Shown here: in pieces, positions 15,600-56,926 of the stretch
Layout: each line of letters starts with the position of its first letter
How positions within the stretch are numbered: position 1 is the first letter of the stretch
Translations under genes and position numbers: made by a program
NCBI GenBank assembly: GCA_008632985.1
Contig: QPGO01000126.1
Span: forward strand, 1-64,000
Direction: 5' to 3'
From: Psammoneis japonica
Taxonomy: Eukaryota
DNA length: 64,000 bases
The notes under the pieces: generated by a model
Database searches by the model: none
What the model was told of the DNA's origin: nothing
The model's input: the letters and a program-made list of their open reading frames with translations, nothing else

Positions 15600-15624
15600 C
15601 GTGAAGTCCGACGGAAAATTGATG

Positions 15625-17365: not shown

Positions 17366-17449
17366 GGTGTGTCGGCAGTTCTGCGGAGAGCGTGGTGCTA
17401 AAAACACGCAGGCATGTTCAGTGCAAGCAATCGCAGAATTGTCAACAAC

Positions 17450-19700
17450 CATGCCTCAGAAGAGGTTGGGGCAGCGGTGCTTCTTGTTGAGCAGTGTTGG
17501 CAATGACATCGTCCCTGCAAAACATGCGCCATCATGTGAGGGAGTCTGGCACACTGGAAGGGTGCACCACAAGCAGCAACATCCCAGTGCACTGCTGCCA
17601 GTTGAAGGGAGTGGCAAAGTTGGGATCATTTTTGTTGCAGAGAAAACTGGCACCATTGAGTGCACTGCAGCCAACAGAATGTGGGGTGTGGGAGGTTCTG
17701 TGATTGGCCCTGGGAAGCCAGGTCTGGCAGATCTGCTTTCAGCTTCTGTGGCAAAATGTGGAAGGGCTTGGCAATTTGATGGTCCAACACTCTTGATGGA
17801 GCAACCTTTGTGAGAGTCTCTGACTCCATGGTGCAACACAGGCAGCTGGAAGGGACAAGACAGTGGGGCAAGTGTTCTCATGGTTTGCATGCTTGGATTT
17901 TGATCAAATGCCTGTGGAGTGCATTGCCATGGATGTGCTTCAATGTTTGGTTGCCATGTGAGCTGGATGGCCCCAGCTGTCAGTGACCATGATGATGCAG
18001 TCAAGAAACCACTGCATCTGAGCTTGGGGAATCATCACACATGAGTGTCAGAATGAACACCTGAGAAGGCCCTCACTTGGTTTGGGTGATGGTCAGTCTG
18101 CAAGGTGCTCTTGAGCTGGCAGATGCACCTGAGGATCTGGATCATGATTGTTTCTTTGAAAAGTTTTGGAGCTGAGATCCTGCAACAGCTCAGTGCCAGG
18201 GTGGTTTCTTGGCCCAAATGGCAGTGGACAAAATCATCAATGTGGGCCTCTGCTGCTTGACAGTTGAAGTTTGCTGGTGGGCAACATTCAATTTAAGAGA
18301 GTGTTTTTGAGCACTTGCAGATGGCAGGCTCATTTTTGGTCATTCAAGCTCCACTGCACTGCTTCTGTGAAAAGCCATGTTGTGTTGTCTAACTTGGAAT
18401 CTTCTGAAGAGAAGAAGATGGGAAAGGGGTTCACACTCTCTGTGTGTTGGCTTTGACAAAGAAACAGAGTTTTTCAGTCCTTGTTTTTATGTGGTGGTTG
18501 CCATGATGCAAGAAGCATGGTTTGGTGCACACAGCTGCATGGCGTTGTTTTGACAACATTGTGACAAATTCAAAGGCATTTTTGCAGCATGGGCATTTTT
18601 GAAGTGGCAATGCTTGGGTCTTTGCCTGATCAATTTCCAGTGCTGATTGAACAGCCCACATGTTTCAAGAGACAAAAAGCCATGTTGCCACCCCCAAGCA
18701 GCTTTTGCAGATGGAAATGAGAGACAAGAGGAGCAGCAATGATGATGACAGTGGTGGCCACAAAACAACAGCAGTGGCAGCGGCAACAATGATGACAATG
18801 GCAATGTGAACAAGAGTGGCAACAGCAATTGCAGCAATGGCAACAATGCCAGCTCTGAGCAACTTGCATTTCAAGAGACAAAAATCCATGTTGTGAGGGC
18901 TTGAGCAGCTTTTGCTGGCAGAAAAACAAGAGACAAAAATGGCAGCAATGACAAAAGCAGCAGCAAGGGCTGCAATGCTGGCAACAGCAACAACAACAAT
19001 GGCAACAGCAGCAAGCTGAGGCACAGCTGCGCCACACTCATTTGATCTCCAGACACCCCAGCCACCAGGAGACCACTGTTTTCCTCTGTGGCTCATGAAG
19101 CGGCAACCCAAGGGTTGCTTTCACACATGCCTCTCATGTGCTGGCATGCATGGGCATGAGGCAGAGACTCTCCATTTGGAACTTGCTCGACACAGATTGT
19201 GCTTGTCAGGCAGCTCCAAAACATCACGCTGCTTCATTTCTCAAACATGCAAAACACTTCATTGCCAAATTTGTGCACATGACTCCTGAAAATGCCACCA
19301 ACAAACATTGCGATCAACGTCACTTTTCGCAACCACCGCCAGCTCTGCGATTTCTGTGCCAGGCTTTTGTGTGGATTTCTGCGTGAGCATGGCTCCTCAG
19401 CATCATGGTTGTTGAAGCAATTGCAGAACCAGCTGACAGCTGGAAAGACAATTTGACTTCCTAAATTTTTTTCACTGGAAACTTCGTGCGTGCAACACGC
19501 ATCATCACCAAAAATCGGCAACATGACGGTGTTGCATTGTCGTGACAACAGCAACAACAGCAACATGTCCTCAGATGTTTGAGCATTGCAGACATTTGTT
19601 TTGGTGCGTTTAGGAACGGTTTCAGTCATGAAAGCCCCCGTGAGAAACCTCCGTTTGAAAGCAAAACGGCAACCAACACCGAGCTCTGTTTTTTTTTCCC
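17450..19700. other. Heavily mutated, low-complexity repeat relic (TpA and CpG depleted)
   Basis: No TA found by eye between about 18490 and 19460; GCA/ACA-rich runs; internal duplication tttcaagagacaaaaa at about 18663 and 18869. Confidence 0.6.
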
Positions 19701-23920: not shown

Positions 23921-24865
23921 CACACCCCAAACAGCGGCCATTTGCATGAGACACCAGCGGGACAATGCAAACCGAGGCGTTTCTTGTGCCCCAATCACCA
24001 TCGCTGTGTTGTTTGCTCTGGGCACAATTCAGAGTAAAAAATTGTCATGTTCACCACAGACAGTGTCTTGTTGCAGTGCTGTCATCTTTTGATTGCAGAA
24101 ATCAGGCACTGGTCTGCACGTTTGGCACTGCTGGAAAAACTTGGGTGGCTGAGCAGTGCCCCCACCTTGCCGACAGACGAGGCCCAAGTCGGGTTGGATG
24201 CACTCTCCAATGAAAACGCAACAATGACTCCCATTGGAGAGTGCCCCATGAAGCGATTTCACCCCCATGAAGGATCTTGCCTTGCATTGGTGACTTTTTC
24301 AGATGCAATGGCAAGAAAAGCAGGAGCAAGGAAGTTCTTGTGCACAGTTGCTTGCATCTCAAGGGCTCTGGGTCCTCTTCCACACATCGACATGCCACTC
24401 TTTTGCACACTTGGAGGAATGCAAGGCAATGGATGCCTGTTGACAAATTGTGAAACATGCTCTGGTCACATTTCACTTTAACCGTGACTCTCTCAAAATC
24501 ATTGACACGTTGGCTGCCGTGATTTTGGCATTGTCACAGCTGGACACAACCACGCAAGTCCACAATGACGACTCAAAATTGAAAGAGACGCCGATTGGTC
24601 ATCTCAATGCCACTGCTCACTGGCTTTACACGCCTCTTGAGGTCTTTCAGGTCATTGCAATTGTCTCCGGAACCATTCACTCCATCCTGTGCGGAAATCC
24701 ACATTATGTTGACCCCAGTCAGACTGAGGCGACATTTTGGTGACGTGTCAGGCTCTCAGTCATGACTGATGTGCATAACAATTTTATTATTTTGGGGTTC
24801 GGTCATGCAATAATTGTCGTTATTATGGTTGTGGAACGTCATGATCAATTATAAAAAACGTCAGC

Positions 24866-27379
24866 ATGAGACATTTTCAACCTCACAAAAAGCGATACTG
24901 GAAGCTGCAAGAGGCCTCCGGTTCAAATTGCTCTCGTGTGCACTTTTTTCTGTGGCCACCTTCCTTTTTAATTTTTCTCGCGATTGCTTTCAGAATGCAC
25001 ACACGGAGCGGTCCCGGAACGACTATGACGACGCTTGCCAACCAGCAACGGGCCAGAGGCATGCGCACCAGGCATAATGCTAGCCGCCTGAGGACTGAGC
25101 AACAACTTATGGGGCCTCTGGTGCATCCACAGCAGCTTTCTGGTGTCAACCAGCGAATGATGTCTGAAACAGTGCTGAACATCGCAGATCAGAATACGGT
25201 CGACAACAACAGTCTCGCGTTCGACCCAAAGAAGGATGAATTCAGGGCGCATTGTGAGTCAAAAGCCGCTGTTGGTGATGACACCACACACCTTGTTACA
25301 AAGGAAAAAGTGCACGAATTTATGTTCCATCAGGCATTCCGAGAAAGGAAGAAACAAGGTGGGAAACGAAAGCGTGGCGAATCGGAACCGACGGGCGGCA
25401 ATTTTGATACCTCCAATTTCCGTACAGTTATCCACACCTACCAAAAAATATTTCAAGAGTGTCTTCAAGGAACAAGGAGTGAAATGCCGGAGCCGCAAAA
25501 CCCGGTCGGCCACAGTTTGATGGCACAGTGCAAATGCGCTGTCAAACACATTCACACGCGGCAGGTCGCTCAGAATGCAAACTCGCTTCCATGGGAATTT
25601 ATTTGGACGGAAGACACAGAAAGGCTGATGAAAATGGTCAGCAATCGCAAGGAAAGAATCAACAAAAAAAATTACAAAGAAAAGATTGACCACGATTTTG
25701 CACCACATGCAGCCATTCAAGAGCTGGACTCGATCGAATCGTGCTTGTGGAAGAGTGGATACAACACCTCTCGTCAGGCTTTCTGTGGCTTAAGAAACCG
25801 TTGCTGCTTCTTACAGACTTTCTCAGGGATTCTACGTGGGGAGTCAGTCTACAAAGCAGAGCTGTCCGATCTCTTGTGCATGAAAATGCAGAAAGATTCC
25901 GACCCTCACCCTTTGACGCTTCTCATCATGCAGACAGCTACGGGAAAGACAAACAAAGGTGTGAAATTGTGTGGCCGCAGCATGAGGCACCTGAATCCCC
26001 TCCTTTGCTCTGTGGGAAGCCTTGGATTCATGTTGCTCTATCGATTCTACCTGACTGGGGAAATGGACCAGCCGCCCGACTTTACCGACAACAAGTCGTG
26101 GTTCGACATCAAGCTTCTGGTGGACTCCAGAACCACTGACAACACCGTGAACATCTCTGACGCGACTTGTGGTGATGCCATGAAGAAAATTGGAAAGGAG
26201 GTGGGCATTCCCATGAACCACTGCGTCCATTTTGGGAGAGTCCTCGGAGCTGTTGAAATGGAGTTTCTAGAGCGTCCCAGCGAAGAGACGCGAACCCTTG
26301 GAAACTGGGACCCAAAGACACAAGAGAAGTTCTACTCTACAAAATTGCCCATGCCATCCATCCGAGCCAAAGGTGGGTTTCACAAAGCCAACGGCATGCA
26401 TTTCAATCCCAGAACAGTGGTTGAGCCGCCAGAAGAGCTCCAGGCGACCACATTTCCATTTGTTGAAGAGTCTCACAATGCTGTGGTGACTTCCATGGCG
26501 CAAAACAATGCCGCTCATCACACCGCCATCAACTTCTTGGTGCTGTTGAAGGAGCTTCGACGAGTGATTCTTCAAGATGCAGCAGCCATTCTAGAGCTCC
26601 ATCCCGAGCGATCAAGGCACCCGCTTTTTCAGATGGAGGTGTTTCAGCATCCACTGTTTCTGGAGTTTCGTCAAACCATGCGGGAGAGCCTGCAAAGCGC
26701 CTCTTCTCCGGCAGACTCAAGCCTCTCTGCTGTCCTCCCAGGAGTTCATGAGCGACTCTCATCTCTCAGTCACGGGCAGCAGCAGTTGGAAGCTGGTCAG
26801 AAGCGTCTGGAGAGCAAGCTTGATGGCTTTGTTGGCGAGTACCGTGCCAATGAAGGAGCCCGGTCGGCAGCAGCAGGACAGCTCACACTGGCTGCCAGCA
26901 GCTTGCTTCATGGCAGAGGACTCTCCAGAGCTGGCGGCAGCGCTCAAGTTGGTGCAGGAGGGAGCTCCAGGGTGGAAGAGGGGCCCGGCAGCAGCACTGA
27001 CACTGCAGATACTGGCATCACAACAGCAGCTCCAGAGGGATTTGGCTACAAACCACCGCGTCAAAACCACTCTAGCGTTCAGTCGATTTACGACCAGTGG
27101 CATGGCTTGAGCGCGTTCAAGGACAAGCCTGTGGTTGGAGGGCTGGAAAAGATGGAAAGCGACCACAAATGCATATGGCGGAAGGACTTTGATAAAGCCG
27201 ACTCACAGTACTTTTCTCGAGTCAAGCGCATTGTGAAAGCGATAGACTCGCTACGAAGCGCAAACCCGCAGAAGACGGCGAGTGTCATCATTGAAGAAAT
27301 GAACACAATTTACAAGGCTGAAGCAAACCAAAAACTTTCTAATTTTGTCAAGGTGTTGAAGGATAAGAACTACATATGA
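24866..27379 (+). mobile_element. Crypton (CryptonF-like) tyrosine recombinase with Ndc10-II-like and C-terminal GCR1_C-like domains; true start probably ATG 24995 or 25026
   Basis: Catalytic-type motifs ILRGES, GKTN, HFGR, LGNW, FYSTKLP; MRH.NPLLC.VGSLGF; C-terminal SVQSIYDQW..GGLEKME..WRK..YFSRVKRIV. Confidence 0.85.
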
Positions 27380-27410
27380 ATGGCAAGTGGCATGGGGGAG
27401 ATAGCGACGG

Positions 27411-28156
27411 CACAGGAGCCTCCGACTTGGCCTGCATCGTTTGCCGCCGACTCAAACTTGAGCGATCTTTCAAAAACTGTTTTTCCGGTGATAAGTCCAA
27501 TGGTGCAAAATAAAACTAAGCATCTCATATTCTTTGTTGAATTGATATTTGAAACAAAACAAGAAGTGAGAAAATCGGTTGAAAAATGAGACAGCACCGG
27601 AGCCTCCGACTTGGCGTGTATCGCACCCCGCCGACTCAAACTTGAGCGATCTCTCAAAAACTGTTTTTCCGATGATAAGTCCAATGATACAAAATAAAAC
27701 TAAGCATCTCACATTCCTTGTTGAATCAATATTCGAAACAAAACAAGAAGTGAGAAAATCGGTTGAAAAATGAGACAGAAACTGCTACGCAGCACTTACA
27801 GTTGTCCAATCTGAATCAAATGAATCAATTTTGCATTCGTTCAAAGTCCACATCTTTAGCTTAGAATGGCTTGTTTCGCAATTCCCACACTCTCATCACC
27901 TCACACACATAATGTGTGCGAGTTCAGAAACAAGAATCGGGAAGATTGACCAAAAAATGACGACGAAAGCCCGCTGCATCAGTTGACAAACTCCATCAAC
28001 TAGAAATCCAATTGGGTGAACTTTCAAAAAATATTTTGTCGGTAATAAGTCCAATTTCGAAGAGTAAAACCAAGACTCTCACATTACCTGTCAAATTGAC
28101 GTGTCAAACAAAACAAGAAGTGAGAAAATCGGTTGAAAATTCATTGAGATAGCACC
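27411..28156. repeat. 184-bp tandem repeat (2 copies, 27411-27778) plus a diverged partial third copy (about 28015-28156)
   Basis: ggagcctccgacttggc at 27415 and 27599; aaacaaaacaagaagtgagaaaatcggttgaaaa occurs three times. Confidence 0.9.
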
Positions 28157-28652
28157 TCCCAAAACCCCCCACGAGCTCATGGTGCTACTGTTGTGATGTG
28201 TTTTCCGGATCCGATGGCCGTTTCCGGTTCGGTACTCATCCTACTTATTTTCTACCTACGGTGTCACGGTGTACACAACTAGGAGAGAATCGTTATTCCA
28301 GTGAGTCAGAAATGCAAGTGGGCCGCGTAGCGGCCCACGTAGAGAACATACCACACGAGTCATGACCAGTCATAAATAATGGACCAGAATAACGCTTCAT
28401 TATTTGAACATGATCGTCTACATGTGGTCGTGGGCGGCCCCGCAAATCCAGTCGTGGGCGCCCCCGCCCAATCAATCCACGTGAGTCCATGTGTCGACCG
28501 TCACAGCATTTTAGGGCTACGGCATCTACTGTATCGGCAAATCGGCACGCATCGTCGATCTTATTTTTTGTGTATTTATCAGTAAGGTTTATTTAGGGCT
28601 ACCCTCTTTGAGCTGCTCACTGCGTGTATAAGTAATAGGAGTATTTCCTACA

Positions 28653-30959
28653 ATGAAGAACAGCAGCATCATTCGCTCCATCAGTGTCTTCCACAAGGAG
28701 TTACCGTTGGCTTCTCCGTATTGTTTGTCGGGTGGCACGGTACACTGCAGCGAGCTGCATGCTACAATTGTCCGCATTGATACGACCGATGGATACTCTG
28801 GTTGGGGTGAGAGCACGTCTTGGAGTCACAATTATTTGCCAGCGTTTGCGGGTGGCGTTCGTGCGTCTCTTGAATTGCTTGCTCCCTACTTGGTGGGCAC
28901 ATGCGCGACGGACTTGGATAAGCTCAATCAACTCATGGACCATGTGTTACCGGGACATTTGTACGCAAAGTGCTGTATCGATATGGCTTGTTGGGACATT
29001 CTTGCGCAGCGTGCTAAACTTCCTCTTTATGCTCTGCTCGGTGGTGCGCACGGCGACGGAGTGGAACCAAACAGTTCCATTTCGACAAACAGCGCGGAAG
29101 AAATGAATCGGGACATTCACAAGTATCGGAAATTGGGATACAAGGTTCATTCCGTCAAACTCGGTGGCGCTGATCCACAAGTGGACATTGAACGGGTCCG
29201 TGGAGTGGTGACGAATCTCAATCCAGACGAAAAGGTTACCTTTGACGTGAACCGGGCATGGACTCCGGCAGTGGCTTGTCAAGTCATGAATGCCACCCAC
29301 GACATTGCTCCCGGGTGGTTTGAACAGCCCTGTGAAACCATGCAAGAATGTGTAATGGTACGAAAGTTGGTGCAGCAGCCGCTCGTGCTGGACGAGATTG
29401 TCGATACCTACGAGTCACATGTGCGTGCCTTCCGTCAAGACGCGTGCGAGGGCATCAAGCTAAAGCCACTCAAGAGCGGAGGCATCACCAAGTCTCGCCG
29501 TATCCGTGATTTCGGAGTCGGTGTGGGGTGGAAGATGCACGTTGAGGCCGTCGCGGGAACCATCTTGGCCGATACGGCGGCAATTCACCTTGCCTTGTCG
29601 ACGCCACTGCCCAACAGAATGGCGTCTTGGTTGTCTCATATGCATCTGACACAAGCGGGAGAGATTGCGCCGGGTCAGGGAGCCAGGTTAAAGGATGGTC
29701 TCATTTGTATCCCGGACAATGTTGTTGGCATTGGTGTTGTGCCGGATTTGGCATTCTTGGGATCACCGGCGGCCGTTTATATGCAGTCGTCTCCAACGTC
29801 CGGTCCAAGCACGACCCCCAAACGTAAGAATGAGATAGCCTATGAAGCAATACCGCGTGTTATGAAAGCAATGGTACTCACCGGACATGGAAGCCTGGAC
29901 CAAATCAAGTATGAGGAGGAATGGCCGGTTCCCGCATTGAAGAGTGGCGAAGCCTTGATTCGCGTTCATGCTTGTGGACTAAACAATTGCGACCTCAACA
30001 TGTGCCTCTCTTGGTATTCAAAGGATGTAACCGTTTCTCATGACCAGTCCCAATCAAACGGAGATATATCATGCAAGTGGAATGGAAAGGAAGCTCAATT
30101 ACCCAAGATTATGGGTTCTGACATTTGTGGAACGGTCGTTGCTCTTGGGCCCGACACCGACTTTGCACGTGACCTACTCAATCGACGTGTACTGGTTGAT
30201 CCATGGATTCCAGTTGCTGGCTCTGGAAAGGAACGAATCAGTATGGCTTACCTTGGTTCTGAGGTTGATGGAGGCTACGCAGAGTATTGCAAAGTTCCCA
30301 TATCTAATGTCCATTGCGTAGACGACCTTGACGACTTTTCGGATGAGGAACTGGCTACTGTGGCATGCAGCGCTGTCGCTGCCGAAACCATGCTCCACAA
30401 TGCTAAGGTAGGTGCTGGAGACGTTGTCCTTCTCACAGGTGCATCTGGCGGTGTTGGTACTTGCTTGTTATCCTTGATTAAACGGCGCGGAGCTACCATT
30501 ATCGCCGTAACTTCCGAGTCCAAGATGAGTACCGTTCTGGAATGTGGAGCTGATTTCGCGCTTCCAAGAGAGGCGGTACGTGATGCGGAGACGCTACGCA
30601 GAGCAATAGAAGAGGAATGCGGTCAAGACGGTATCACTGTGATTGCCGACACCGTTGGCGGGTTAGCGGCCGAAGTTTCCCTTCAGGTGTTGCGTGAACG
30701 GGGTAGATACGTGTGCTGTGGTGCGATTGCTGGTGCTACGCTCAGGGTGGATCTAAGAGATTTGATATATCATGATTTGGAAATGCATGGTGCAGCTCAA
30801 TCGCATTTGAGCTGTTTCAGTGACATTGTGTCTTACCTTCGGCATGGAGAATTTACTCCTCGACTTGCCCTACAGTACCCGCTGGCGAAACTTCATGAGG
30901 CTTTGGAAGCCTTCAAAGAGAAACGGCACACGGGAAACATAGTTGTCACAATGAAGTAG
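28653..30959 (+). CDS. Fusion: mandelate racemase/muconate-lactonizing (enolase superfamily) enzyme plus MDR/zinc-binding alcohol dehydrogenase family oxidoreductase
   Basis: GWGE, IDMACWDI, HSVKLGG, DVNRAW, EQPC, LDE, KLK; then VHACGLN..D, GSD.CG.V, DGGYAEY, LTGASGGVG, G.IVV; intronless. Confidence 0.9.
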   Translation: MKNSSIIRSISVFHKELPLASPYCLSGGTVHCSELHATIVRIDTTDGYSGWGESTSWSHNYLPAFAGGVRASLELLAPYLVGTCATDLDKLNQLMDHVLPGHLYAKCCIDMACWDILAQRAKLPLYALLGGAHGDGVEPNSSISTNSAEEMNRDIHKYRKLGYKVHSVKLGGADPQVDIERVRGVVTNLNPDEKVTFDVNRAWTPAVACQVMNATHDIAPGWFEQPCETMQECVMVRKLVQQPLVLDEIVDTYESHVRAFRQDACEGIKLKPLKSGGITKSRRIRDFGVGVGWKMHVEAVAGTILADTAAIHLALSTPLPNRMASWLSHMHLTQAGEIAPGQGARLKDGLICIPDNVVGIGVVPDLAFLGSPAAVYMQSSPTSGPSTTPKRKNEIAYEAIPRVMKAMVLTGHGSLDQIKYEEEWPVPALKSGEALIRVHACGLNNCDLNMCLSWYSKDVTVSHDQSQSNGDISCKWNGKEAQLPKIMGSDICGTVVALGPDTDFARDLLNRRVLVDPWIPVAGSGKERISMAYLGSEVDGGYAEYCKVPISNVHCVDDLDDFSDEELATVACSAVAAETMLHNAKVGAGDVVLLTGASGGVGTCLLSLIKRRGATIIAVTSESKMSTVLECGADFALPREAVRDAETLRRAIEEECGQDGITVIADTVGGLAAEVSLQVLRERGRYVCCGAIAGATLRVDLRDLIYHDLEMHGAAQSHLSCFSDIVSYLRHGEFTPRLALQYPLAKLHEALEAFKEKRHTGNIVVTMK

Positions 30960-31132
30960 GGAAACCAACCATTATGCCTAGGTTGGTAGTTGATAGAATA
31001 CATCTGGTAATCGAACGCATGGCAAACGATATTAATTCTCGTTAACAGCACTGAATATGGTAGAGTCGGAAAAGGTGATTCCCATCGAATTGCGGCGGCC
31101 TCATGACAACAGTTCCTTGATACATGACAGAT

Positions 31133-34100
31133 TCACCGGCTTCGAAATGTTGGAGAGAGCCCAGCGCCTTCGCCCCTGTCCCAGATTCCCTCGAAGTTCT
31201 TTAGCATGTTTTCCTTGGTACTGATTGACTCACCAGTTTTCATGCTAGTGACGGATCGGTGGACGTTTGGGTAGACGAAGAACGGAAGGCTGATCCTCCC
31301 CTTCGCATGTCCAGTGATACGAACGCGATGGGGTGCAGATATAATGGCTCCTCCTGTCCAGTGTTCAAGCAGGTCTCCAGCGAACAACACGGGCACGCCA
31401 GGATAACCGTGGATCCGACGCCACTCTCCATCGACGTACAGCTCGGGTGGGTCGTCGGTGAAGAAAAGGATCGTGAAGACTCCGTTGTCCGTATGCACGC
31501 CAGCAAATGACTGACTGTATGCGGGATAGTGGATGGCTCGTTGAATCAAGGTCGGCTTATCCAGCAGCGTTTCCATCCTGTTGTCGGAAGCTGCATCGAA
31601 ATAGCTATCCAGACACGAGTTGATCACAGGTACAGCCTCTACCATCACCTTGCGCTGAAGTGAATGGAGTGAATCAGCAAACGCCGGTGCAACGTCATAT
31701 TCAGGCAGGACGGTAGGGCCAATAAAAGGATGTGTCTGCGGATCTTCTGGCAGTGCTTGGCCCTCGAGACCCAAATCAAAAACTTCCTTAAAGTCCGGAC
31801 CTTCGAAAGTGTTTAAGGTCTCGCCGTGTACAGCCACGTAGCCCCTTGCTTTTTCCGGGAATACCGACTGAACTTTGCTTGTGTACCGATTCTTCGTTTC
31901 AGGTGACAAATGAAAAAAGTTTAGGCATGCTTGAACAGCATCTTGAGGAAACCCCACAAAACCATCAAGAAATACAATTCCGTCTGACTTTAGCCCGTTC
32001 ACCAAGCGATCAACCTCAACTCCATCCCTATCCTCGAGCTTATTGAAGGCAATGGTATCCAGAAAAGCGGGTTCAGGAGAAACCAACCGACTCACGTCAC
32101 ACACCGGAGCAAGGAGGGACGGATCAGTGGACACCATCGTTTTAACGGCATCAACTATCTCCTGCGTAACCACCAGATTAAGGCCAGCTGTCGCATCTTG
32201 AATTTTAGGGACTATCTTCAAGGCGTCCTTGCAGTACTCAGAGTTGTAGAGGTGAAGGTTATCTGATACCCAGCACGCACCAACACTCCAAGTAATGAAA
32301 TCATGGGGGTCAAGTCCCATACCAAGTCCAAGCGCTTCAGCGTCCAAGTAGGCAAGCAAGTTCGTGTACGTTACCCATTCCCGCACTGTTTCAAGCACCT
32401 TTTGTTGCTCAGCAGACGGAGTGAACGAGCTCGAAAGGTACTTGTCTGGAATAACGGGCTGCTTGCGTCCAATGCTGTCACAATAGTAGGTGCTGTGCTT
32501 GTAGGTCTTGTCAGCTCCATGAGGGGACGGGCTTACCCAATTCTCCTCTCTCAGAGAAACTCCGGTGTCGTGTTCGGTAATAGTGTTGACCAATAAATGA
32601 TTCAACTTGGCCAACTCGGTTTCATCGTAGCCACTAGCGATACGATTGAAAAACTTCACTGTGGCTGGAAGAACACGGCTCGCAGAATGCTTACTTCCTT
32701 TTGCACGAAATTCCTTTTCCAGGTCCATCGTCAAATTGACATCTTTGACGACGACCTCAAGAGTGCAAGACCTGTCGTAGCTGCCATCCAGAAGACACGG
32801 AACAAAGTGCCGCATAGTCGCCGACATGCTGCTGCCCTGTTCAAGAAATCGCCAAGCATAGTGAGGAGGGATCCCTGAAAGCTTGCAAATAGCAAGAGCC
32901 TCGCCCGAGATAGCTGTAGCAAGGTAAAACATCAGATTAGTGAGTAGCTTGATGGTTTGAGCTTTGCCGATCTCATCCGAAACAAAGAAAGACTTGGCAC
33001 TAATCACATCCAACTCATCGACAACTTGAGCGTATCCTTTGCGCGACCCAGCAGCATAAAACGATGCATTACCAACGTCAACGCCGAGCTGGTGAAGGTT
33101 ACTGACGGGAATTTCCAGCGGCAAGACATTGTTGACTTTGCACAACTCCGCGAGCTTGACCGTCACGTGGTAATCCGTGGTGGAGAAGTCCGCCCACACG
33201 GACCCAGGCTTCATGGCGGCAATGGCATTCCCCGATCCAGTCATGACGTCCTCTACATCCCGCGGAAGGGGTAGATTCGTAATTACAAAATCGGCATTCT
33301 TCACTGCATCTTGAGCATGGTCGTGCCAAGTACCTCCTAGCTCCTCCATTTCTTCCTTGGTGGTGTAGGCGAGCGAATCTGGGTACTTGTCAAACATGTC
33401 AACACTGTATGCTTGAGCAAGAAAAAGTTTCACCATTGCCGATCCCATACGCCCAACTCCAAGCATTGCGATGCGGCGAGACGTACGCTTCTTTTGCGCC
33501 GTGTTCTTGTAAATTGTGACAAGCTTGGCGTCCACACCGATGAGGTAGGGAATCCGTTCCACAGAAATGTCAGCGACTTCGCGCAACTCATCCAGAGCAG
33601 CCTTGAAGTGGGTTTCATAAAAAGTTTCTCGGACCGTAAACATGATTACGCCCCCCGGCTTGGCGATTCGTAGAAACTCTCGCAACGCTGGATTCGGGAA
33701 AACGTGACCTTCCAGGAAGGCTCCCACGCACGTAATGGCTTCAAATTCATCCTTTGGATACTGCGCTAAACTTTTGTTCATGTCGACTTGACGCAAAGTT
33801 TCGTAGTATGGGGCAGCTTCCTCCAGCATATGCTCACTCAAATCGCACCCATGAATCGACCACTCTCTCTTACAATTCTCCGTCTTGTTCAAGTTCACGA
33901 GGTTCTGTCCTACTAAACCAGTCCCACACGCTGCATCCAAGACCTTGATGCGATTTTCTTTCTTGTCTGCAAAATGAGACACGACCTTTTTCGCCACAGT
34001 GGTCGGTCCTTCGTATTGCAGACTCTCCACGTGCCTCTCGTATTTGGCTGCCCATTTTTCATAAACTTTCGAGTTGTCCTTTGATGTGTCTAATGCGTCT

Positions 34101-34189
34101 CGATGCAGTTGCGCCAGTTCCTTCTCATCCTTGTCAGAGGCAGCGACGCCAGGCACATTCTGACCGCTTCCGTTCCTCATTGTGCTCAC
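31133..34189 (-). CDS. Triple fusion: class I SAM methyltransferase, NAD(P)-dependent beta-hydroxyacid dehydrogenase (3-hydroxyisobutyrate DH family) and IPNS-like 2OG-Fe(II) oxygenase
   Basis: VLDAACGTGLVG, CDLSEHML, KPGG; GVGRMG, DFSTTD, IKLLTN, VKD; FFHL..ETK, RGY, DFKEVFD, HYP, HTD, SAPHRV, RISLPFF; intronless. Confidence 0.9.
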   Translation of the reverse strand: MSTMRNGSGQNVPGVAASDKDEKELAQLHRDALDTSKDNSKVYEKWAAKYERHVESLQYEGPTTVAKKVVSHFADKKENRIKVLDAACGTGLVGQNLVNLNKTENCKREWSIHGCDLSEHMLEEAAPYYETLRQVDMNKSLAQYPKDEFEAITCVGAFLEGHVFPNPALREFLRIAKPGGVIMFTVRETFYETHFKAALDELREVADISVERIPYLIGVDAKLVTIYKNTAQKKRTSRRIAMLGVGRMGSAMVKLFLAQAYSVDMFDKYPDSLAYTTKEEMEELGGTWHDHAQDAVKNADFVITNLPLPRDVEDVMTGSGNAIAAMKPGSVWADFSTTDYHVTVKLAELCKVNNVLPLEIPVSNLHQLGVDVGNASFYAAGSRKGYAQVVDELDVISAKSFFVSDEIGKAQTIKLLTNLMFYLATAISGEALAICKLSGIPPHYAWRFLEQGSSMSATMRHFVPCLLDGSYDRSCTLEVVVKDVNLTMDLEKEFRAKGSKHSASRVLPATVKFFNRIASGYDETELAKLNHLLVNTITEHDTGVSLREENWVSPSPHGADKTYKHSTYYCDSIGRKQPVIPDKYLSSSFTPSAEQQKVLETVREWVTYTNLLAYLDAEALGLGMGLDPHDFITWSVGACWVSDNLHLYNSEYCKDALKIVPKIQDATAGLNLVVTQEIVDAVKTMVSTDPSLLAPVCDVSRLVSPEPAFLDTIAFNKLEDRDGVEVDRLVNGLKSDGIVFLDGFVGFPQDAVQACLNFFHLSPETKNRYTSKVQSVFPEKARGYVAVHGETLNTFEGPDFKEVFDLGLEGQALPEDPQTHPFIGPTVLPEYDVAPAFADSLHSLQRKVMVEAVPVINSCLDSYFDAASDNRMETLLDKPTLIQRAIHYPAYSQSFAGVHTDNGVFTILFFTDDPPELYVDGEWRRIHGYPGVPVLFAGDLLEHWTGGAIISAPHRVRITGHAKGRISLPFFVYPNVHRSVTSMKTGESISTKENMLKNFEGIWDRGEGAGLSPTFRSR

Positions 34190-34446
34190 CTTTATCAGGC
34201 TTATAGTGCAGGTACTGTACTATTGTAGTTCACCTCTTGCACCTTGCAGATTGCAGAGCGATCTTTTCTCTGAAAGATCGTGCCGAAACTTGGGGGAAGT
34301 CTCCAGCCAGCTGCTGGCTGAAAAAATTCTGTCCGTCAGTGCGTTAGGGGTATAAAATTCCACGACCCAACGCACTGTTGGCGCAATTTGATGCCCATGA
34401 CGATGGCAAAAGACGGCTCCCGGGGGCTTCTATTTTGTGTACTACA

Positions 34447-34978: not shown

Positions 34979-36690
34979 ATGGCGCCTGTCAAAGAGAAAT
35001 CCGTTAGAGATGGACTGAACCAGAAAGATCAGTTAGAGCTTGATGCCATTGCCAGCATCTTGGGCAAAAAAGGCGACGAAGAACTCACCCGGAGTGCTAT
35101 GGATAAACTCATCCTCGACAAGGTTGGTCACCATGTGAGCGACAGCATCATGGCGGAGATCTTCCAAGAGTGCGATACCGACAACAGTGGCACTGTTTCT
35201 GTTGATGAGTTTGGGAACTACATCCGGAACTTAAAGGGGAGTACTACAAGGGGCGAAAAAGTTCGCTACGTAGTCTGCAAACTCACCTTCTCCATGGATT
35301 GGTGGGCCTTCATCATGTTTCTGATTGCACTTCTTACTTCCGTGACTCTCAATGTCTATTCCCGGCTTGGGATACTGCCAAGAGATTTCAATTTCTATGG
35401 GATGAATGCGCTTTTGTATGTCTTTGGCTGCTACGCCTATGTCGCCCGGATATACGATAGGATTTCTAAGGATTACGACCTCATTGAAATTGTAAACGGA
35501 AAGATCATAACGTGGGTTGAATCACTGGACGAGGAGAGTGGCGTGGTCTCGTCCAAGGAATTGACGCCGCATCAACTCTTTACCCTCCTCGAAAAGAAGG
35601 ACTGTATGTTCCTTATGATACCTTCTATAAAGTGTTCCGCCGGATCGACAAAGACAAAAGTGGGACACTGAGTTTGTCCGAGGTCAAGGACTACGCAGCT
35701 AAAGAACGAGCGCGGGGTCCACTCACTCGGCTACAATTCCATCGCAAGGTACTTAGGAGGTGCTATCTGTCTCTCGATTACTGGTTAAACTGGGGTTGGG
35801 TTATGGGAAGCGTATGCTTTGCGGTTGTTGCTTTCAAGGAGGACTTGTCCGAGACTGAATCTCTTCACATTGCTGGGGCTGGATGTATCCTATTCCTTAT
35901 TAGTGCCTTCTTTCAGCACGTGACAAACTACAAGAGCACAGGTCGTTTCCTGGACCGTGCAGAGGAGTTGAATGCTGTCTTCTTGTCGATAGTTAAGGAG
36001 CAATCCATGAGAACATCAATCATGCGAAGAGGAGGAAATAATATGGCTATCTCCGATGCCTCGATGCGCCGTGTATCCGAGAATGCGGAGGAAGATTCAA
36101 ATATAAAGGAGGCTTGTCATCAAGTCTTTGAGAGTTTTGATAGACAGGGTAAGGATGGGGCTGGTGATGGCAACTTGGATTTCATCGAGCTCTACGAGGC
36201 TCTTTCGGGATTCGGTATTGTCATTGAACTTGATGTACTTCGTTTTATTTTCAACCAGGCTGATGTGAACGGCGACAAAAGCCTTCAGCCTGAAGAATTT
36301 GTTCGTTATATCTTCAGCATTAAAAGAAGCAAAACTCCTCAGGAAAGACGCCGAGAAATCATTAGGGCCATGTCGAAGACCACCTATTTCTGGATGTGTT
36401 GGTTGCAAGTTTTCGCGGGGTTTGTCATCACTCTTGTGAACTACTACGACATGTCTGCTGAGACAGCGCGCAACTGGAGCTTGGCTGGAAACTTTTCATG
36501 GATGATTCCCGTTATATGGTATCTATGGGTGATTGTCAGAGGACATGTGGACTACTTTGAAGCATCGTCTAGAAGCAAGATCCATTTGAAGGAATTTTTC
36601 TTGAGCGAGGCCACCAAGACGCAGCACACTTCCACCTCCGTGTTGATTTCCGCTCGAGTTTTGTATCGTGGTGCCATGCCCCCTCACTAA
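34979..36690 (+). CDS. Membrane protein with three modules of EF-hand(s) plus two TM helices; 1-bp frameshift near 35600
   Basis: EF loops DTDNSGTVSVDE, DKDKSGTLSLSE, DGAGDGNLDFIE, DVNGDKSLQPEE; adding one base at aagaagga|ctgtat joins the two ORFs (..KKGLYVPYDTFYKVFRRID..). Confidence 0.75.
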
Positions 36691-39406: not shown

Positions 39407-42400
39407 CTATGTTGTTGATACTAGTACCGCCTTGATTCTCCTTATTGGGCCTCTACCCTTTGTATCCAGCACAAGCTCGAGTTGATTAGACTCTTTCGAA
39501 ATGCTCCGAGGCACCGAGTCATGCAACGACGCCTCGTTGTCCAGCACAAAAGCTGCGGGGACCTCAATTTTTGTTTTTGTTGAAAAGAACAAGGTCTCCA
39601 CTCCTGTTTGATAAAATACCTTCACCTTGACAACTGGCGGATAACCCTGCTTTCTCGCTTCCTTGACATTCTGGAAATCCCCCTGCACTTGCGACTTGTG
39701 AAACATTCCGGGTTGCAGAGGAATTGGATCTCCTTGGACTCTGACTTTACCGGTCGTCTTCAACTTTAACTTAACCGACATTGGACTGGTTACACGAATG
39801 TATTTGACGTTCTTGTCTGAAAGCTCCTTAACAGGAATCTTCTCTGATGGTTCAGCATCGTAGTTGGAAGGACCGTATCCTTGATAGTCTTTCTTGCAGT
39901 AGTTGAACAGATAGCCCGGAGAAAAATCAAATACATTACAGAAAGCGGGTGTAGATTTGGTCAAAGCGAGATACGTGCAACAAATAAACCGGTCGTTTGC
40001 TGCGCCTACTTGACTGCCAAGCTCGTTCATATACGTTTCTCCGCTGACGAAATAGGCGCTATTTGCGCATCCTGGAACACAATCTACTGGTTCATAGCCA
40101 GGCAGCTCATTTTCTTTTCCAATCAAGTCCGACCACCTGTTGCAGGTGGGAGTGGCATCGCAATTTGGAACGATGCCTCCCGTTGTGGCGTACGAATACT
40201 CATCCCCGAGTTCAAACAAGCTGTGTCCTACGGTAGAGAAACAACCAGAAAATGAAGTGATCAACGTATAGCATGACTCGACACCGAAAAAGACGATTGG
40301 TGCCTTCTTACCTAACTCATGAACCGCAATTATTGGTCCGTAAGGGTGTGTTGTCAATGTCGCTACATTTTCTTTTGTATAGCCACCTCCACCGTAGTTG
40401 CTGTCATTATGGATCACCAGGGTTTGAAGATTACTTCCAGCAGGGAAACATTTCCCGGACTGTGTGTGAGCTGTCGGCAAATCGCAGCATAGGAGCCGTT
40501 CGATCATTCCACAGTTTAAGTTGCAATACGACTTGTTTTTACGCAGCCTCTTAGGACTGACAACAAAGAAATTGACTCGGTGAATATCTCTGCTGAACAT
40601 GTTGAATTTGCTGAAATATCTGTGTATCTTGACGACCTGAGCACGCCACTCTGCGTTCGTGGCGATATCGAATCCCGACGGAACAAACACAATGTTGATA
40701 GCGTTTTCGTCAAACGGGGTACCATACTTATGATGAACAGGAAAACATTCATTTGAAGCCATGCACACACTATTTCGACAAGTGCCGCTGATACACTCCC
40801 TTCCATTAGCACACACCCTCCCGGTGCCCTTTAGAATACCTTGTTGGTCTTCAGGGGTCGGCGGGACGTTTCCATCATCTGGTGTCGATGAACCGGATGG
40901 GGTCAATGTCGGAGACTTGGCAGGCTCTGATGTTGAATCGGAAGCTCTTCCTACTGAAGGAGAAGTTGAATCCGAGGGGGGTGTAGTTGGGAAAAGAGTG
41001 GGAGACTGAGTTGGTGGTTGCGTTGGTTTTGGGTTAGAGGCGGTCGTCGGAGATGGCGTCGGTGGAATACTCGGACTCAGCGTGAGAGACTTGGCACCAC
41101 TTGTAGGATCAGCAGTTGGAGGCAACGTCGGAATTTTAGTAGGCAATGCTGTGGGACGCGAGGTCGGAGGGGGTGTCGGCAAGGGTGTTGGAGGCTTTGT
41201 AGGGTAAGGTGTTGAAGAGACTGTCGGACTAACTGTTGGAGGTGGAGGCGGTGGCAATGTCGGACTTTTTGTGGGCAATGTTGTCGGACGCGAAGTCGGA
41301 GGGGGTGTCGGCAAGGGTGTTGGAAGCTTTGTAGGGTCAGGCGTTGAAGAGACTGTCGGATGAAGTGTTGGAGATGGAGTCGGCGGCAATGTCGGACTTT
41401 TTGTGGGCAATGCTGTCGGACGCGAAGTCGGAGGGGTGTCGGCAAGGGTGTTGGGAGCTTTGTAGGGTAAGGAGTTGAAGAGACTGTCGGACGAAGTGTT
41501 GGAGGTGGAGTCGGCGGCTGTGCAGGCTCAATGAAGTTTCGCCACAGGAAATGATACGGCTGGTACCTTCCACTGTCTCCAGTGTCACTAGTCATTCGGC
41601 GAACTGTTTTCCACTCACTGCTATCCCAAAGACAAAAGCTGACGCCTGAATCGGCGTCTTGTACTGACAACATGATTTTGTTGCTATCTGGAGAAGATTC
41701 CAGAGTCATGGACATTGGGGCCCTACCCAGATCTGGTCCATCTTGCTCTCTTGACCAACTTCCGGACCACGTTCGGTACATAACCTTGTTTCCACTTCCT
41801 TTGTATGTAACAATGGCCTTCCCCGAATTCCCTTCAAAAGCGACGGCAATTCCATAGAAGCTAAAGATAGGCATGTCATATTCGGAGATCAGCTCAACAT
41901 CTCACCAGTCCTCGCCATCCCAGACTGCTACCCAAATCCTTCTTTCGTTCGTAGAAGCTACTAATACAATGCGGTTACTTGTTGGGTCAGTTGCAATCCT
42001 GAGATGCTTAGGTTTCGTCTTTACTGCTTTTGGCGGGCTCAAGTTATCCTCTTTACTCCAAGTATATCCTTCCGCTGTTCGATAGTAAACATCCTCATCC
42101 CTGTTTACATAGACAACAAGCGCTCGGCCTCTTGACTGTTCATAGGCAATGTCTGTATTCGTGGCATACATGTTGTCCATGTTCTTCAAATCGAAGTGTG
42201 GACCAGGTGTATGACCTCTGTACATGGTACACTGATCGGAACCACCTTGTGTTGCCAAAACTACCACCATATCGTCCGCCTTTGGATTCGAAACTAACTT
42301 GATGTTTCGCGGCATTCGATTCCCGAGAACAGTTCTAAAATTGATTTCCTTCTCCCAATCAAGTCCCATTCCATTTTTTAACCTTCATTGGAAACGATGG

Positions 42401-43978: not shown

Positions 43979-44891
43979 TTTATGCATCCAACAACTTAAG
44001 GGGAAGGGGTTCTAAGGGAACGAAAAATCATAGGCTGTGGTAATGCTTTTTGTTAGTGTAAATGCCACAGAACTATCGACTTCCAACGGGGTTCATGCAC
44101 TTCACGTACTACGTAAACAGCTTTTGCAGGAAAAGCCTCTGGTTAATATTGAAAACATCCACCAAATAGCCGCATGCTTCTCTATAGTGCTGTTTCATTT
44201 CTTTTCCTCACACAGCATCAATGGTTCAAACACAGGCTTGTTTCAAGCTGTCAGGGAAACTATCCTTTCAAAAGTTGTGGTATGCAACCAAGGCTTCACT
44301 AGAGAGTTGCCTCATTTTCATAGGGCCACATTGCTGTACTGCAGAACGAGCACACCAGGCTACTTTACAGGCCAAAGTTCCAATCCAATCATCGATTTGT
44401 TCCAGAAATCTGAAAAGAACGGAACGAGCCAGTACAGTGTGGATGCTATCGGGGCCCAAATTCAAATTGGTACCGGCACTTGAAGTCATGAACTCCGGCA
44501 CGAGCTCGCGAAAGGATCAACCAATCGGACGACGGTCGGTCGCCGAATCTCACCGCCCAATATTTGGTGTCAATTGTTCTATTCAGAAATGGAGTGTTTC
44601 ATTAGATTCTCTCCGTTCACTATCAAATTTGTGTAGGTACAAAAGGCGGTTGAATCTTGCGCAGAAGACTTTGTTCGACTCCGACTGCTGACGGCTTCGC
44701 ATTCAGTGACATTTCGCGACACGCGCTGTCACCTTTCTTCGCCAATCCCACTTCCCAACTTCCCGAGCGCACTTTGGAGGTTGTCAACGCGCTGTCATAA
44801 AAACACTTCTTATGATACACTGTATGCATTCTTCACTCAATACACGCTGCTGATCATCACCAAAGCGGCATTACATGTTATAGAATACACA

Positions 44892-45617
44892 ATGGCAAGT
44901 CGAAAACTCACACACTTCTTAACCACCCCTTCACGCGTTGCGAATGCGTTGAACTGGAAACGCATGGGGTCGGTTTTATCGCTCGATATCGGTAAAGACC
45001 GAATCGGAATGGCGGTTGCCTCCCACCCGTCATCAAGTTATGACGGAGACTTTGGCGAAGACCCCGTCGTCAAGCTAGACTCCATCCAGCTCAAGTATGG
45101 GATCCGGAACAACCGTAAGGTTCTTTCTCCCTGCGTGTTGGAAGAACTCCACGCGGTTGTTCAGGAGAACGACGTTTGCGGCCTCGTGGTTGGGTGGCCT
45201 CTCCAACGCGAGGGAAACCTCGGTGCTGCCTGCGGGAAGGTGTTGCACACTCTCGATTGCCTCGTGGAGAACTCAAGCATTCTCCAGAACCGCCCGTTTT
45301 GCCTCTGGAACGAGGACATGGTTGTGCCGAGGTCTCCGGATTCCTTATACGAAGACGAATGGGGAAGATCACCCATTTGGGCGCGGTCGTCCATGAAGGA
45401 GCATCACGTGGCCTCCAAGGAACAGTACGACCACCACGAAGCGTCTCCGGATGTCGCGGCCGAAGTCTGGAGCGACTTTTGCGAGAGCCAGTGGCCTGAG
45501 CATTGCGAACCCAAGGCGCAGGAACGAAAGCAGTCTACGAGCGAGCCTTTCTTCGACCCTAGCTGGTTGGAAGATTGTGAAGGCGGTGGGCAGAATATTC
45601 AGATGTCTCTCCTCTAG
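44892..45617 (+). CDS. YqgF/RuvX-like RNase H-fold protein
   Basis: VLSLDIGKDRIGMAVA, GLVVGWPL..G, CLWNE. Confidence 0.8.
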   Translation: MASRKLTHFLTTPSRVANALNWKRMGSVLSLDIGKDRIGMAVASHPSSSYDGDFGEDPVVKLDSIQLKYGIRNNRKVLSPCVLEELHAVVQENDVCGLVVGWPLQREGNLGAACGKVLHTLDCLVENSSILQNRPFCLWNEDMVVPRSPDSLYEDEWGRSPIWARSSMKEHHVASKEQYDHHEASPDVAAEVWSDFCESQWPEHCEPKAQERKQSTSEPFFDPSWLEDCEGGGQNIQMSLL

Positions 45618-56100: not shown

Positions 56101-56926
56101 CGCAGCCCACGACGAGGAATTCTTCGACCTGTCCCACATCCTGGATGTGGATGCTCTGGAGCAAGATTGAGGAGCTCTGAAAACTCGTCGTCCTCCACAG
56201 ATATAGTCGGAAAGCCCATTTGGGGGAGCATTGGATCTTGTTGTTTGGGAAACAATTCCCAGATGAAGAGCCAGTCTTCAAAGCCCAATGGACATAGCTC
56301 TTCAGGCATTGTAGGCGATGGAGTTGGAGCTAGCGTAGGTGCCACTGTTGGTGATGGAGTTGGACTTGGCGTAGATTGGAGAGTCGGAGCTGGCGTCGTA
56401 AGCATTGGAGTAGGTGACGGCGTTGACGCAGGCGTGGGTGATGATGAAGGAGACGGCGTAGGTGATAGAGTTGGACTAGGCGTGGGTGCGACAGTCGGTG
56501 ACGGCGTGGGGTCTGGTGTAGGCATCGGAGTGGGTAATGGCGTAGGCTTTGGCGTTGGTGATGGAGGTGGTGCATCCGTAGACTTTTTCCCTTTTGATGC
56601 ACCTTTACTCTTCTTCTTTCCTTCACCACCTTTCCCCTCTTTTTTTCCCTTATTACTATCTCCTTTGCTTTTTCCGTTCTCTCCCTTTCCCTTTTTCAGA
56701 TTGTCCTTTGCTTCATTATTATCAAAACTATTCCACGATTGACTAAAAACAGAGCGCGACGCTCTTCGTCTGTTGACACTAGGGCCCTACGCTTGTATTT
56801 TCGAAACTGCCCGGCAGACACTGTATGCTCGTTCTGAGTGTCGATTATTGCCCTGATCCTACCAAACTCCGTCAAAAACAGCGCAAGTTGAAACAGAGCA
56901 ACGATATTGGGTACATCAACGATCAT
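53196..56926 (-). CDS. Secreted RHS/YD-repeat protein; N-terminal part joined by a frameshift or intron near 56745
   Basis: Hydrophobic N-terminus, Lys/Gly-rich and Pro/Thr linkers, YNS..GPFGLGWSFSY (DUF6531-like), many YDxxG repeats, core LYFRQRYQDPSVGRFIS..YVYALDNPVN. Confidence 0.88.

Follow-up and report, generated by a model that had tools for sequence, protein, structure and literature searches.

Proline betaine, hydroxyproline betaine and cis-3-hydroxyproline (PMC3950512, PMC5144071) are the substrates of the only characterised close relatives of an enolase-superfamily domain encoded at a locus of the diatom Psammoneis japonica that we describe here. The locus lies in a stretch of 64,000 nucleotides (contig QPGO01000126.1 of assembly GCA_008632985.1, positions 1 to 64,000 of the forward strand; hereafter the window), where two convergent fusion genes, ORF1 and ORF2, encode five enzyme domains: an enolase of the muconate-lactonizing-enzyme (MLE) subgroup and a medium-chain dehydrogenase/reductase (MDR) in ORF1, and a methyltransferase, an extended beta-hydroxyacid dehydrogenase, named betaHAD+ here, and a 2-oxoglutarate (2OG)-Fe(II) oxygenase in ORF2. 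The pathways of the hydroxyproline-betaine epimerase HpbD and of cis-3-hydroxyproline dehydratase share with the diatom locus an MLE enolase with two lysine bases and Asp/Glu/Asp metal ligands and, by alignment, what may be a corresponding acidic residue at strand 7 and Trp close to strand 8, but they are catabolic and include Rieske and flavin demethylases, whereas the diatom module has the methyltransferase, the 2OG oxygenase, betaHAD+ and the fused MDR.

A second system for comparison is the roseobacter dddQ cluster, whose native function is called unknown and is linked to proline betaines in the cited part of its description (10.1101/161257). Its enolase (41-51% identity) and MDR (41-46%) are among the nearest relatives of ORF1, but its cupin, dimethylglycine-dehydrogenase-like, Rieske and aminotransferase genes have no counterpart among the 20 long open reading frames (ORFs) of the window, the genome-wide search having covered the Rieske protein. 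The mammalian METTL27/WBSCR27 protein, whose family includes the diatom methyltransferase, stands alone (PMC9240639), whereas the diatom enzyme is fused and the bacterial ones lie in operons with small-molecule enzymes. With regard to architecture, thraustochytrid crtIBY is also a stramenopile case of few packed or fused genes serving one small-molecule pathway (PMC10016063); crtIBY and the dab cluster have other enzymes and another product, and the diatom locus differs from both in holding five domains in two convergent genes of apparently two origins. Judged from its sequence, the locus lies outside every characterised pathway, given that its enolase and dehydrogenase fail the tests for named families and that the dddQ partner genes are absent from the ORFs of the window. 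The dab cluster, which directs domoic acid synthesis in Pseudo-nitzschia, reportedly consists likewise of few tightly packed genes for one small-molecule pathway.

The nearest counterpart in gene content is a bacterial cluster of methyltransferase, 2OG oxygenase, betaHAD+ and MLE enolase genes, with MDR or Rieske genes in addition, for which we found no description as an operon or cluster in the open-licence PMC and bioRxiv literature. Represented in Pseudomonas, in cyanobacteria-like DNA and in a third locus (L032), it holds all five subfamilies, at 32-46% identity per domain, but there the genes are separate and their order varies, with sulfotransferase, Rieske, EamA or APS (adenosine 5'-phosphosulfate) kinase genes often alongside, and its enolases form a sister clade to that of the diatom. 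What is new here is that, in bacteria, relatives of a rare dehydrogenase have genes related to the four remaining diatom domains as neighbours.

Two convergent fusion genes

ORF1 (28653..30959, plus strand) encodes a protein of 768 aa and ORF2 (31133..34180, minus strand) one of 1015 aa; both are intronless, and their convergent stops are separated by a spacer of 173 bp (30960..31132), in agreement with the roughly 170 bp of the original prediction. Pfam assigns MR_MLE_N/C and ADH_N/ADH_zinc_N to ORF1, and Methyltransf, NAD_binding_2/NAD_binding_11 and DIOX_N/2OG-FeII_Oxy, in this order, to ORF2. In 200 base-shuffled versions of the 5.5-kb stretch the longest stop-free run had a mean of 143 aa and a maximum of 258 aa. 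The prediction of two convergent intronless fusion genes with five enzyme domains is thus borne out by open frames, Pfam matches and gap-free contigs alike; of the limits proposed for the pair (28653..34189), the first is the start of ORF1, while the second falls 9 bp beyond the first ATG of ORF2 (34180).

Contigs were available from two sequencing runs, X1 and X2, which do not count as independent support because they come from a single sample and a single study, possibly the source of the assembly itself. One X1 contig of 5896 nt covers both genes without gaps, with 12 differing letters and a depth of 55 against 60-66 nearby; the 12 differences listed inside ORF1 and ORF2 comprise seven silent and five missense changes, with no stops and none at catalytic residues. 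Run X2 carries the record label 'DNA?', and we read it as RNA-derived because it skips two GT..AG introns of the right-hand neighbouring genes that X1 retains. An X2 contig of 2430 nt (28602-31031) covers the whole of ORF1 and another of 3307 nt the whole of ORF2, both gap-free, and they stop inside the spacer at 31031 and 31013, respectively, where the X1 contig crosses. With the caveat of the label of X2 and of its non-independence from X1, these contigs support intronless fusions carried on separate transcripts. The depths of the X2 contigs (18 and 159) were left unused, as contig depth is unable to rank genes.

Each of the five domains has one close copy in the host genome (G000, 91.4 Mb), where the silicon transporter family has 24 matches, which marks the host as a diatom; a frame of 1511 aa in the same genome (G000:C38:226311-230342) contains three tandem silicon-transporter units. 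Contamination is ruled out by host-like depth and GC content, host repeats and spliced flanking genes. With five domains in 5.5 kb and the same set clustered in bacteria, the locus shows the co-location expected of a eukaryotic biosynthetic gene cluster.

The enolase-superfamily domain (28653..29780, plus strand) was assigned to the MLE subgroup from Pfam, PDB matches and motifs: MR_MLE_N and MR_MLE_C are accompanied by the Lys bases K169 and K271 and the metal ligands D198, E224 and D247, all five invariant in an alignment that includes a proxy for HpbD, the Cereibacter protein L073 (671 bits to 4e8g/4izg/4j1o). E298 lies at the end of strand 7 and W326 at that of strand 8. The betaine-binding residues of HpbD are Asp293 and a Trp (PMC3950512), and by alignment alone, with the proxy sequence standing for HpbD, Asp293 aligns with E298 and the Trp of the proxy falls one alignment column from W326; this Trp bears the number 312 in the cited part of that paper, and counting along the L073/4e8g alignment gives 321. 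The best PDB match is the uncharacterised 2qdd (409 bits), followed by 4mgg (209) and 4e8g (137). For the two functions that the original prediction had named from the subgroup, family-level tests gave no support: against the cis-3-hydroxyproline dehydratase family NF043002 it scores 266.8 bits, below the cut-off of 500, and it is 29% identical to the HpbD proxy versus 49-57% to the uncharacterised 2qdd-type clade, so that orthology to HpbD fails. The operon enolases L035 and L022 also remain under the NF043002 cut-off (379 and 357 bits) and share with the diatom enolase the motifs LSGG, H[ST]xK and the strand-8 Trp. Another protein considered as a possible HpbD, H136, turned out not to be HpbD and was rejected. 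Because the N-terminus of ORF1 is in register with stand-alone bacterial enolases, ORF1 has no obvious targeting peptide.

A Ser/Pro/Thr-rich linker of about 25 aa (29781..29852, plus strand) connects the enolase to the MDR domain (29853..30956, plus strand), which is of the quinone/enone-reductase type according to Pfam, NCBIfam and motifs. The MDR has GLNNCD and GSD at the positions of the catalytic zinc ligands and no structural four-Cys cluster, which we take, by the motif definitions of the MDR family, to mean that the zinc ligands are replaced and that this is a zinc-free reductase; on the same definitions it is presumably no zinc-dependent alcohol dehydrogenase, as both the catalytic and the structural zinc sites are absent. 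Its best NCBIfam match, a PIG3-type family (108 of 297 bits), fits zinc-free reductases. The nucleotide motif TGASGGVG with no Asp after it suggests NADP(H) as the cofactor, and the MDR looks reductive. The closest relatives on plasmids, from roseobacters and rhizobia, are 38-45% identical.

In ORF2, the class I S-adenosylmethionine-dependent methyltransferase (33497..34120, minus strand) belongs to the METTL27/WBSCR27 family, with motif I DAACGTG (residues 82-88) and D113, and its family profile matches 7qcb in the PDB with E 3e-38, the runner-up having 3e-13. The betaHAD+ domain (32111..33490, minus strand; about 460 aa) was identified from motifs and a structural model, and carries GVGRMG at 241-246, the acidic D264 after strand 2, from which a preference for NAD may be deduced, and the invariant catalytic K411; its substrate loop reads PVSNL instead of PVSGG, and there is an additional C-terminal helical domain. 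A Rossmann motif, a Lys in the helical domain and the fold place it in the beta-hydroxyacid dehydrogenase superfamily, in a subfamily of about 440-460 aa that is distinct from the usual enzymes of about 300 aa; its model has a pLDDT confidence score of 89, and the best known folds (3cky, 1vpd) cover about 300 of 463 residues. Against the NCBIfam families of named dehydrogenases (HIBADH, TSAR, threonate dehydrogenase and sulfolactaldehyde reductase) it scores 64-87 bits, with cut-offs of 292-397. The 2OG-Fe(II) oxygenase (31136..32080, minus strand) is of the DIOX/IPNS type, with a complete HxD...H iron triad (H896-x-D898, H951) and the RxS 2OG motif (R962-x-S964).

A bacterial cluster around the rare dehydrogenase

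The betaHAD+ subfamily is rare: it was absent from 401 sampled Pseudomonadota genomes at E 1e-35, viral contigs gave no relative, and a plasmid search returned generic dehydrogenases only. In the ESM Atlas the first match to betaHAD+ is a 454-aa cluster of 206 members, mostly bacterial. A metagenome scan with the betaHAD+ alignment yielded 37 loci, 22 of them of at least 9 kb, and since short loci can hide neighbours we report counts for both sets. Near betaHAD+ there is a relative of the enolase in 24 of the 37 loci (20 of the 22 long ones), of the methyltransferase in 16 (15), of the oxygenase in 16 (15) and of the MDR in 8 (5). Dereplication of the 32 betaHAD+ matches that cover 60% of the domain left 20 groups at 90% identity and 7 at 70%; methyltransferase, oxygenase and enolase occur together in four of these seven groups, and in two of the four the MDR as well. 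As a control, 13 loci with distant enolases only, from a genome-contig scan with the enolase domain alone, contained no methyltransferase, oxygenase or MDR (0/13) and a single weak generic dehydrogenase (1/13).

The full set of five types is present in L032, L034 and L035. In L035, which looks cyanobacterial from a DUF1822 neighbour, six genes of the five types each match the window at the corresponding domain only, with 34-45% identity, and in both L034 and L035 the dehydrogenase gene is directly followed by the oxygenase gene. The Pseudomonas group, where L018 is 99% identical to P0011 from a P. putida/coleopterorum cluster, has the order methyltransferase, oxygenase, betaHAD+, enolase, Rieske, APS kinase, LysR, EamA and sulfotransferase. 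Among the 37 loci we counted sulfotransferase in 15, EamA in 13, Rieske in 12, APS kinase in 6, MttB in 6 and proline-racemase-family genes in 5; the loci with MttB and proline-racemase-family genes form a separate, anaerobe-like group that is without methyltransferase or oxygenase. Other neighbours of betaHAD+ include binding proteins of betaine ABC transporters and an oxygenase resembling butyrobetaine hydroxylase.

The same five subfamilies cluster in bacteria, betaHAD+ is rare and chance adjacency is low, and for these reasons we consider a single pathway for the five domains very likely. The chance that single-copy genes become adjacent is about 1e-4 by our own estimate (10 kb of 91.4 Mb), considering that betaHAD+ is rare and that each domain has a single close copy. 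The inference of the original prediction, a single pathway that makes or converts a small molecule bearing methyl and hydroxyl groups, is therefore well supported by the co-occurrence of the five subfamilies in bacterial clusters.

Some other features of these and related loci were recorded. The clusters contain further oxygenases of the butyrobetaine-hydroxylase/TauD-like (L033) and HalD/WelO5-like (L037 group) types, and L035 and L052 each have a 2OG-oxygenase-like ORF without a family match. Relatives of the diatom oxygenase on rhizobial plasmids (36-38% identity; L061, L062) are adjoined by DUF2267 and glucose-methanol-choline (GMC) oxidoreductase genes, the other four genes being absent, and in L061 a diaminobutyrate transaminase gene lies beside the oxygenase relative. 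The proline-racemase-family genes of L041 and L044 were considered as 3-hydroxyproline dehydratases and rejected, as they have Ser and Cys at the catalytic positions and score below the NCBIfam cut-offs.

Proposed pathway and mosaic ancestry

Our preferred reading, to which we assign a probability of roughly 0.5, is that the locus is a compact biosynthetic module, bacterial in ancestry and integrated into the host genome, that would work through cyclic imino acid (proline or pipecolate) chemistry to give an N-methylated, hydroxylated zwitterion, ORF1 and ORF2 being predicted to act on one small molecule as cytosolic polypeptides. The methyltransferase would N-methylate the imino acid towards a betaine and the 2OG oxygenase would add a hydroxyl group to the ring, the probable site being C3, which is beta to the carboxylate. 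The enolase would take the alpha-proton, leading to epimerisation at C2 or to elimination of the beta-hydroxyl group; the NAD-type betaHAD+ would oxidise the beta-hydroxy acid, in which case CO2 may be lost, or reduce the iminium formed after dehydration, and the NADPH-type MDR would reduce the resulting ketone or enamine. In the bacterial versions with a sulfotransferase, sometimes an APS kinase, and an EamA exporter, the product is probably sulfated and exported; sulfotransferase, APS kinase and EamA are missing from the diatom locus. The exporter, sulfotransferase and regulator genes of the bacterial versions accord equally with an osmolyte and with a secreted metabolite.

The cyclic imino acid is suggested because the characterised enolase relatives use proline-type rings, and because betaHAD+ adjoins betaine demethylases, proline-racemase-family genes and betaine transporters. 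For the proline-betaine-like substrate of the original prediction, the enolase relatives and the betaHAD+ neighbours (MttB, the proline-racemase family and betaine ABC transporters) are favourable, and its identity is so far deduced from such relatives and neighbours. Hydroxyproline betaine and proline betaine are both contained in plankton (PMC11965087).

Several results weigh against the preferred reading. None of the five subfamilies has a demonstrated activity or product, and in the cited part of the study of METTL27/WBSCR27 its substrate is given as not known, its authors favouring a nucleic acid (PMC9240639). The complete set was found in no more than the three loci named above among 37, the Pseudomonas-type operon carries a gene for a Rieske oxygenase and none for an MDR, and one query with that Rieske protein found no relative in the host genome. 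In the enolase tree the diatom pair is nested in a marine alphaproteobacterial clade (100/99) that is sister (97/95) to the operon enolases, and a joint clade of diatom and operon enolases was rejected by the approximately unbiased (AU) test (p-AU 0.0027; LG+G4, the group being defined after the first tree had been seen). The MDR tree left the diatom branch without resolved placement. Eight plasmid or genome loci fetched with the enolase and chosen from the top matches (L016, L017, L055, L056, L063-L066) include MDR in 7/8, and betaHAD+, methyltransferase and oxygenase, the genes of ORF2 type, in 0/8; by their gene content, with dimethylglycine-dehydrogenase-like, Rieske, aldehyde dehydrogenase and class III aminotransferase genes, these clusters look dddQ-type and catabolic. 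Finally, an enolase-MDR fusion was not found in dinoflagellates, by a search that also missed known homologues of ORF2. A weak partial match in the host genome to an L035-like sulfotransferase (E 2e-4) was not taken as evidence.

The trees, which were built on chosen subsets of matches (55, 31, 14, 19 and 32 rows), and the closest relatives point to different sources for the two genes. The best 120 stand-alone enolase matches are 49-57% identical to the diatom domain, most of them unnamed and those with names all bacterial, mostly marine Alphaproteobacteria; the operon enolases are 42-46% identical to it. On the Mesorhizobium plasmid NZ_AP023251 the enolase gene is immediately followed by the MDR gene, the order of ORF1, and L063 and L064 additionally have a DMSP (dimethylsulfoniopropionate)-lyase-family cupin. 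Two sulfatase-like genes and a tripartite transporter adjoin the Sulfitobacter enolase-MDR cluster (L055:13703-20392), an arrangement that fits a sulfated substrate and may be due to chance. At least one fused full-length homologue of ORF1 exists (P0003, on a 5503-nt contig), 78% identical overall and 79-80% in both domains with a divergent linker; this is a minimum, since the word-based search also missed known ORF2 homologues. Querying the ESM Atlas with P0003 gave MDR clusters alone, under 0.9, which has no bearing on the fusion.

The word-based search with the whole of ORF2 gave no matches, but an exhaustive search in the same length range found full-length homologues, and the empty result is therefore no evidence of absence. 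The domain order of ORF2 recurs in P0008/P0157 (one 90% cluster, which includes an entry from Pyrodinium bahamense) and in P0007, with two and three methyltransferase units ahead of the dehydrogenase and oxygenase. Quick trees place the diatom dehydrogenase and oxygenase with these dinoflagellate-type proteins (SH-like approximate likelihood ratio test, SH-aLRT, 97 and 100), which argues for one origin of the ORF2 fusion among these algae.

Transfer of the operon in one step does not agree with these results, given the rejected enolase clade, the unplaced MDR and the ORF2 domains grouping first with dinoflagellate-type proteins. Because the enolase rejects the operon clade while the ORF2 fusion is shared with dinoflagellate-type proteins, we propose either a mosaic locus or an unsampled donor. 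ORF2 would have been fused once in an alga and be shared with dinoflagellates, ORF1 would be a fused enolase-MDR pair from marine Alphaproteobacteria, and the two would have been joined at one locus, or else inherited from an unsampled donor with the same mix. Nesting in a bacterial clade, host depth, host repeats and spliced flanking genes together indicate gene transfer and integration into the host genome. The original prediction had not covered the origin in bacteria, the mosaic ancestry or the homologues in dinoflagellates.

Alternative readings, flanking elements and significance

It is unlikely that the single pathway is built on another scaffold, whether an acyclic trimethylammonium acid of the butyrobetaine, valerobetaine or diaminobutyrate type or an N-methylpipecolate that is aromatised to homarine. 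The butyrobetaine-hydroxylase-like gene of L033 and the diaminobutyrate transaminase beside rhizobial oxygenase relatives could be explained in this way, and by our own reckoning the pipecolate route to homarine fits on paper, with one methylation, one dehydration and three oxidations. Nevertheless, the MDR appears to work as a reductase, those enolase relatives that have been characterised act on pyrrolidine rings, and homarine is produced by many diatoms and by Synechococcus (PMC13236597), yet betaHAD+ is rare and has few eukaryote-type matches.

Not likely either is that the same five-step module makes a sulfonium zwitterion similar to DMSP or gonyol, by S-methylation of a methionine-derived acid whose beta-carbon would be reworked by the enolase, dehydrogenase and MDR. 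Dinoflagellates produce both DMSP and gonyol (PMC11965087), abstraction of an alpha-proton by an enolase-type enzyme suits sulfonium elimination (10.1101/161257), and close relatives of the diatom enolase and MDR occur in clusters with the DMSP-lyase-like cupin DddQ. The activity of DddQ on DMSP has itself been argued to be promiscuous, the neighbouring genes suggesting proline betaines (10.1101/161257, in the part cited); the DddQ clusters carry class III aminotransferase and N-demethylase-like genes, and neither Pfam nor NCBIfam gives a DMSP-synthesis family as a match for the diatom methyltransferase, which speaks against sulfonium chemistry.

We also regard as improbable a catabolic or salvage module, in which an environmental betaine would be taken up for nitrogen or carbon and the methyltransferase would be accessory. 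Although the closest enolase and MDR relatives are in catabolic-looking clusters and MttB demethylases lie beside betaHAD+ in the anaerobe-like loci, the diatom protein and, with two to three copies, both dinoflagellate-type proteins contain a fused methyltransferase, and a methyltransferase accompanies betaHAD+ in most of the long bacterial loci (15/22). Furthermore, the one Rieske query found no demethylase relative in the host genome, the 20 long window ORFs scanned include no demethylase, aminotransferase or aldehyde dehydrogenase family, and the bacterial versions have an exporter and a sulfotransferase. That two unrelated, horizontally acquired fusion genes became neighbours by chance in a transposon-rich region is very improbable, for while ORF1 and ORF2 differ in their nearest relatives and mobile elements lie on either flank, the same five subfamilies stand together in several bacterial groups and single-copy genes would seldom meet, by the estimate given above.

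The mobile elements, which are outside the proposed pathway and whose involvement in the assembly of the locus is possible, are a Crypton-like element on the left and a MITE (miniature inverted-repeat transposable element)-like repeat end on the right. The Crypton-like element (24702..28403, plus strand), 250 bp upstream of ORF1, has a 6-bp direct repeat at its ends and a tyrosine-recombinase-like ORF of 837 aa (24866-27379) with NDC10_II and GCR1_C matches; X1 contains an empty allele, with the joint 24701-28398 and a depth of 31.7 versus about 60. It also contains about four tandem units of 184 nt (27406-28143). The MITE-like end (34291..34345, plus strand) lies about 110 bp upstream of ORF2 and belongs to a family of about 210 bp with terminal inverted repeats elsewhere. 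A 36-base pattern from it has 30 matches in the host genome at one mismatch or fewer and none in the control, and this recurrence ties the locus to the host genome. The possibility that a 30-bp element of high depth at 34290 might be a spliced leader was discarded, as it is one end of this genomic inverted-repeat element.

Elsewhere in the window, two overlapping ORFs for EF-hand membrane proteins occupy 34979-36690, where X2 has an extra base at 35591 that is absent from X1 and may join them into one gene, as an allele or as an error. A single frame of 1196 aa (53196-56786) has DUF6531 and RHS repeats in a bacterial-type architecture, 39407-41527 has a weak Peptidase_M64 match and 44637-45617 a RuvX/YqgF-family match. 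Two long minus-strand frames of 1966 and 566 aa (9759-17455) are without Pfam match, and 58001-62000 has a strongly negative GC skew (-0.21 and -0.48) that is probably due to a simple or tandem repeat.

Many polar methylated metabolites of algae lack known genes, and catabolic clusters of marine bacteria lack known substrates. It appears that here a eukaryote has reassembled, from two sources, a gene set that bacteria keep as an operon. With two genes and no introns, the locus is a minimal form of an uncharacterised pathway and lends itself to direct expression, the operon of culturable Pseudomonas serving as a parallel system. Three questions become testable with it: what the gene set produces, which substrate is native to the dddQ cluster, and what chemistry the METTL27 family performs. 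A more speculative proposal, which we consider somewhat unlikely, is that the diatom, dinoflagellate and bacterial sets all make one methylated zwitterion, which many bacteria would sulfate and export, and that the dddQ cluster has this compound as its real substrate and degrades it with the same subfamilies of enolase and MDR. If so, two genes would reveal a hidden metabolite passing from alga to bacterium and account for DddQ's native role, and an enzyme of the METTL27/WBSCR27 family would have its first small-molecule substrate.

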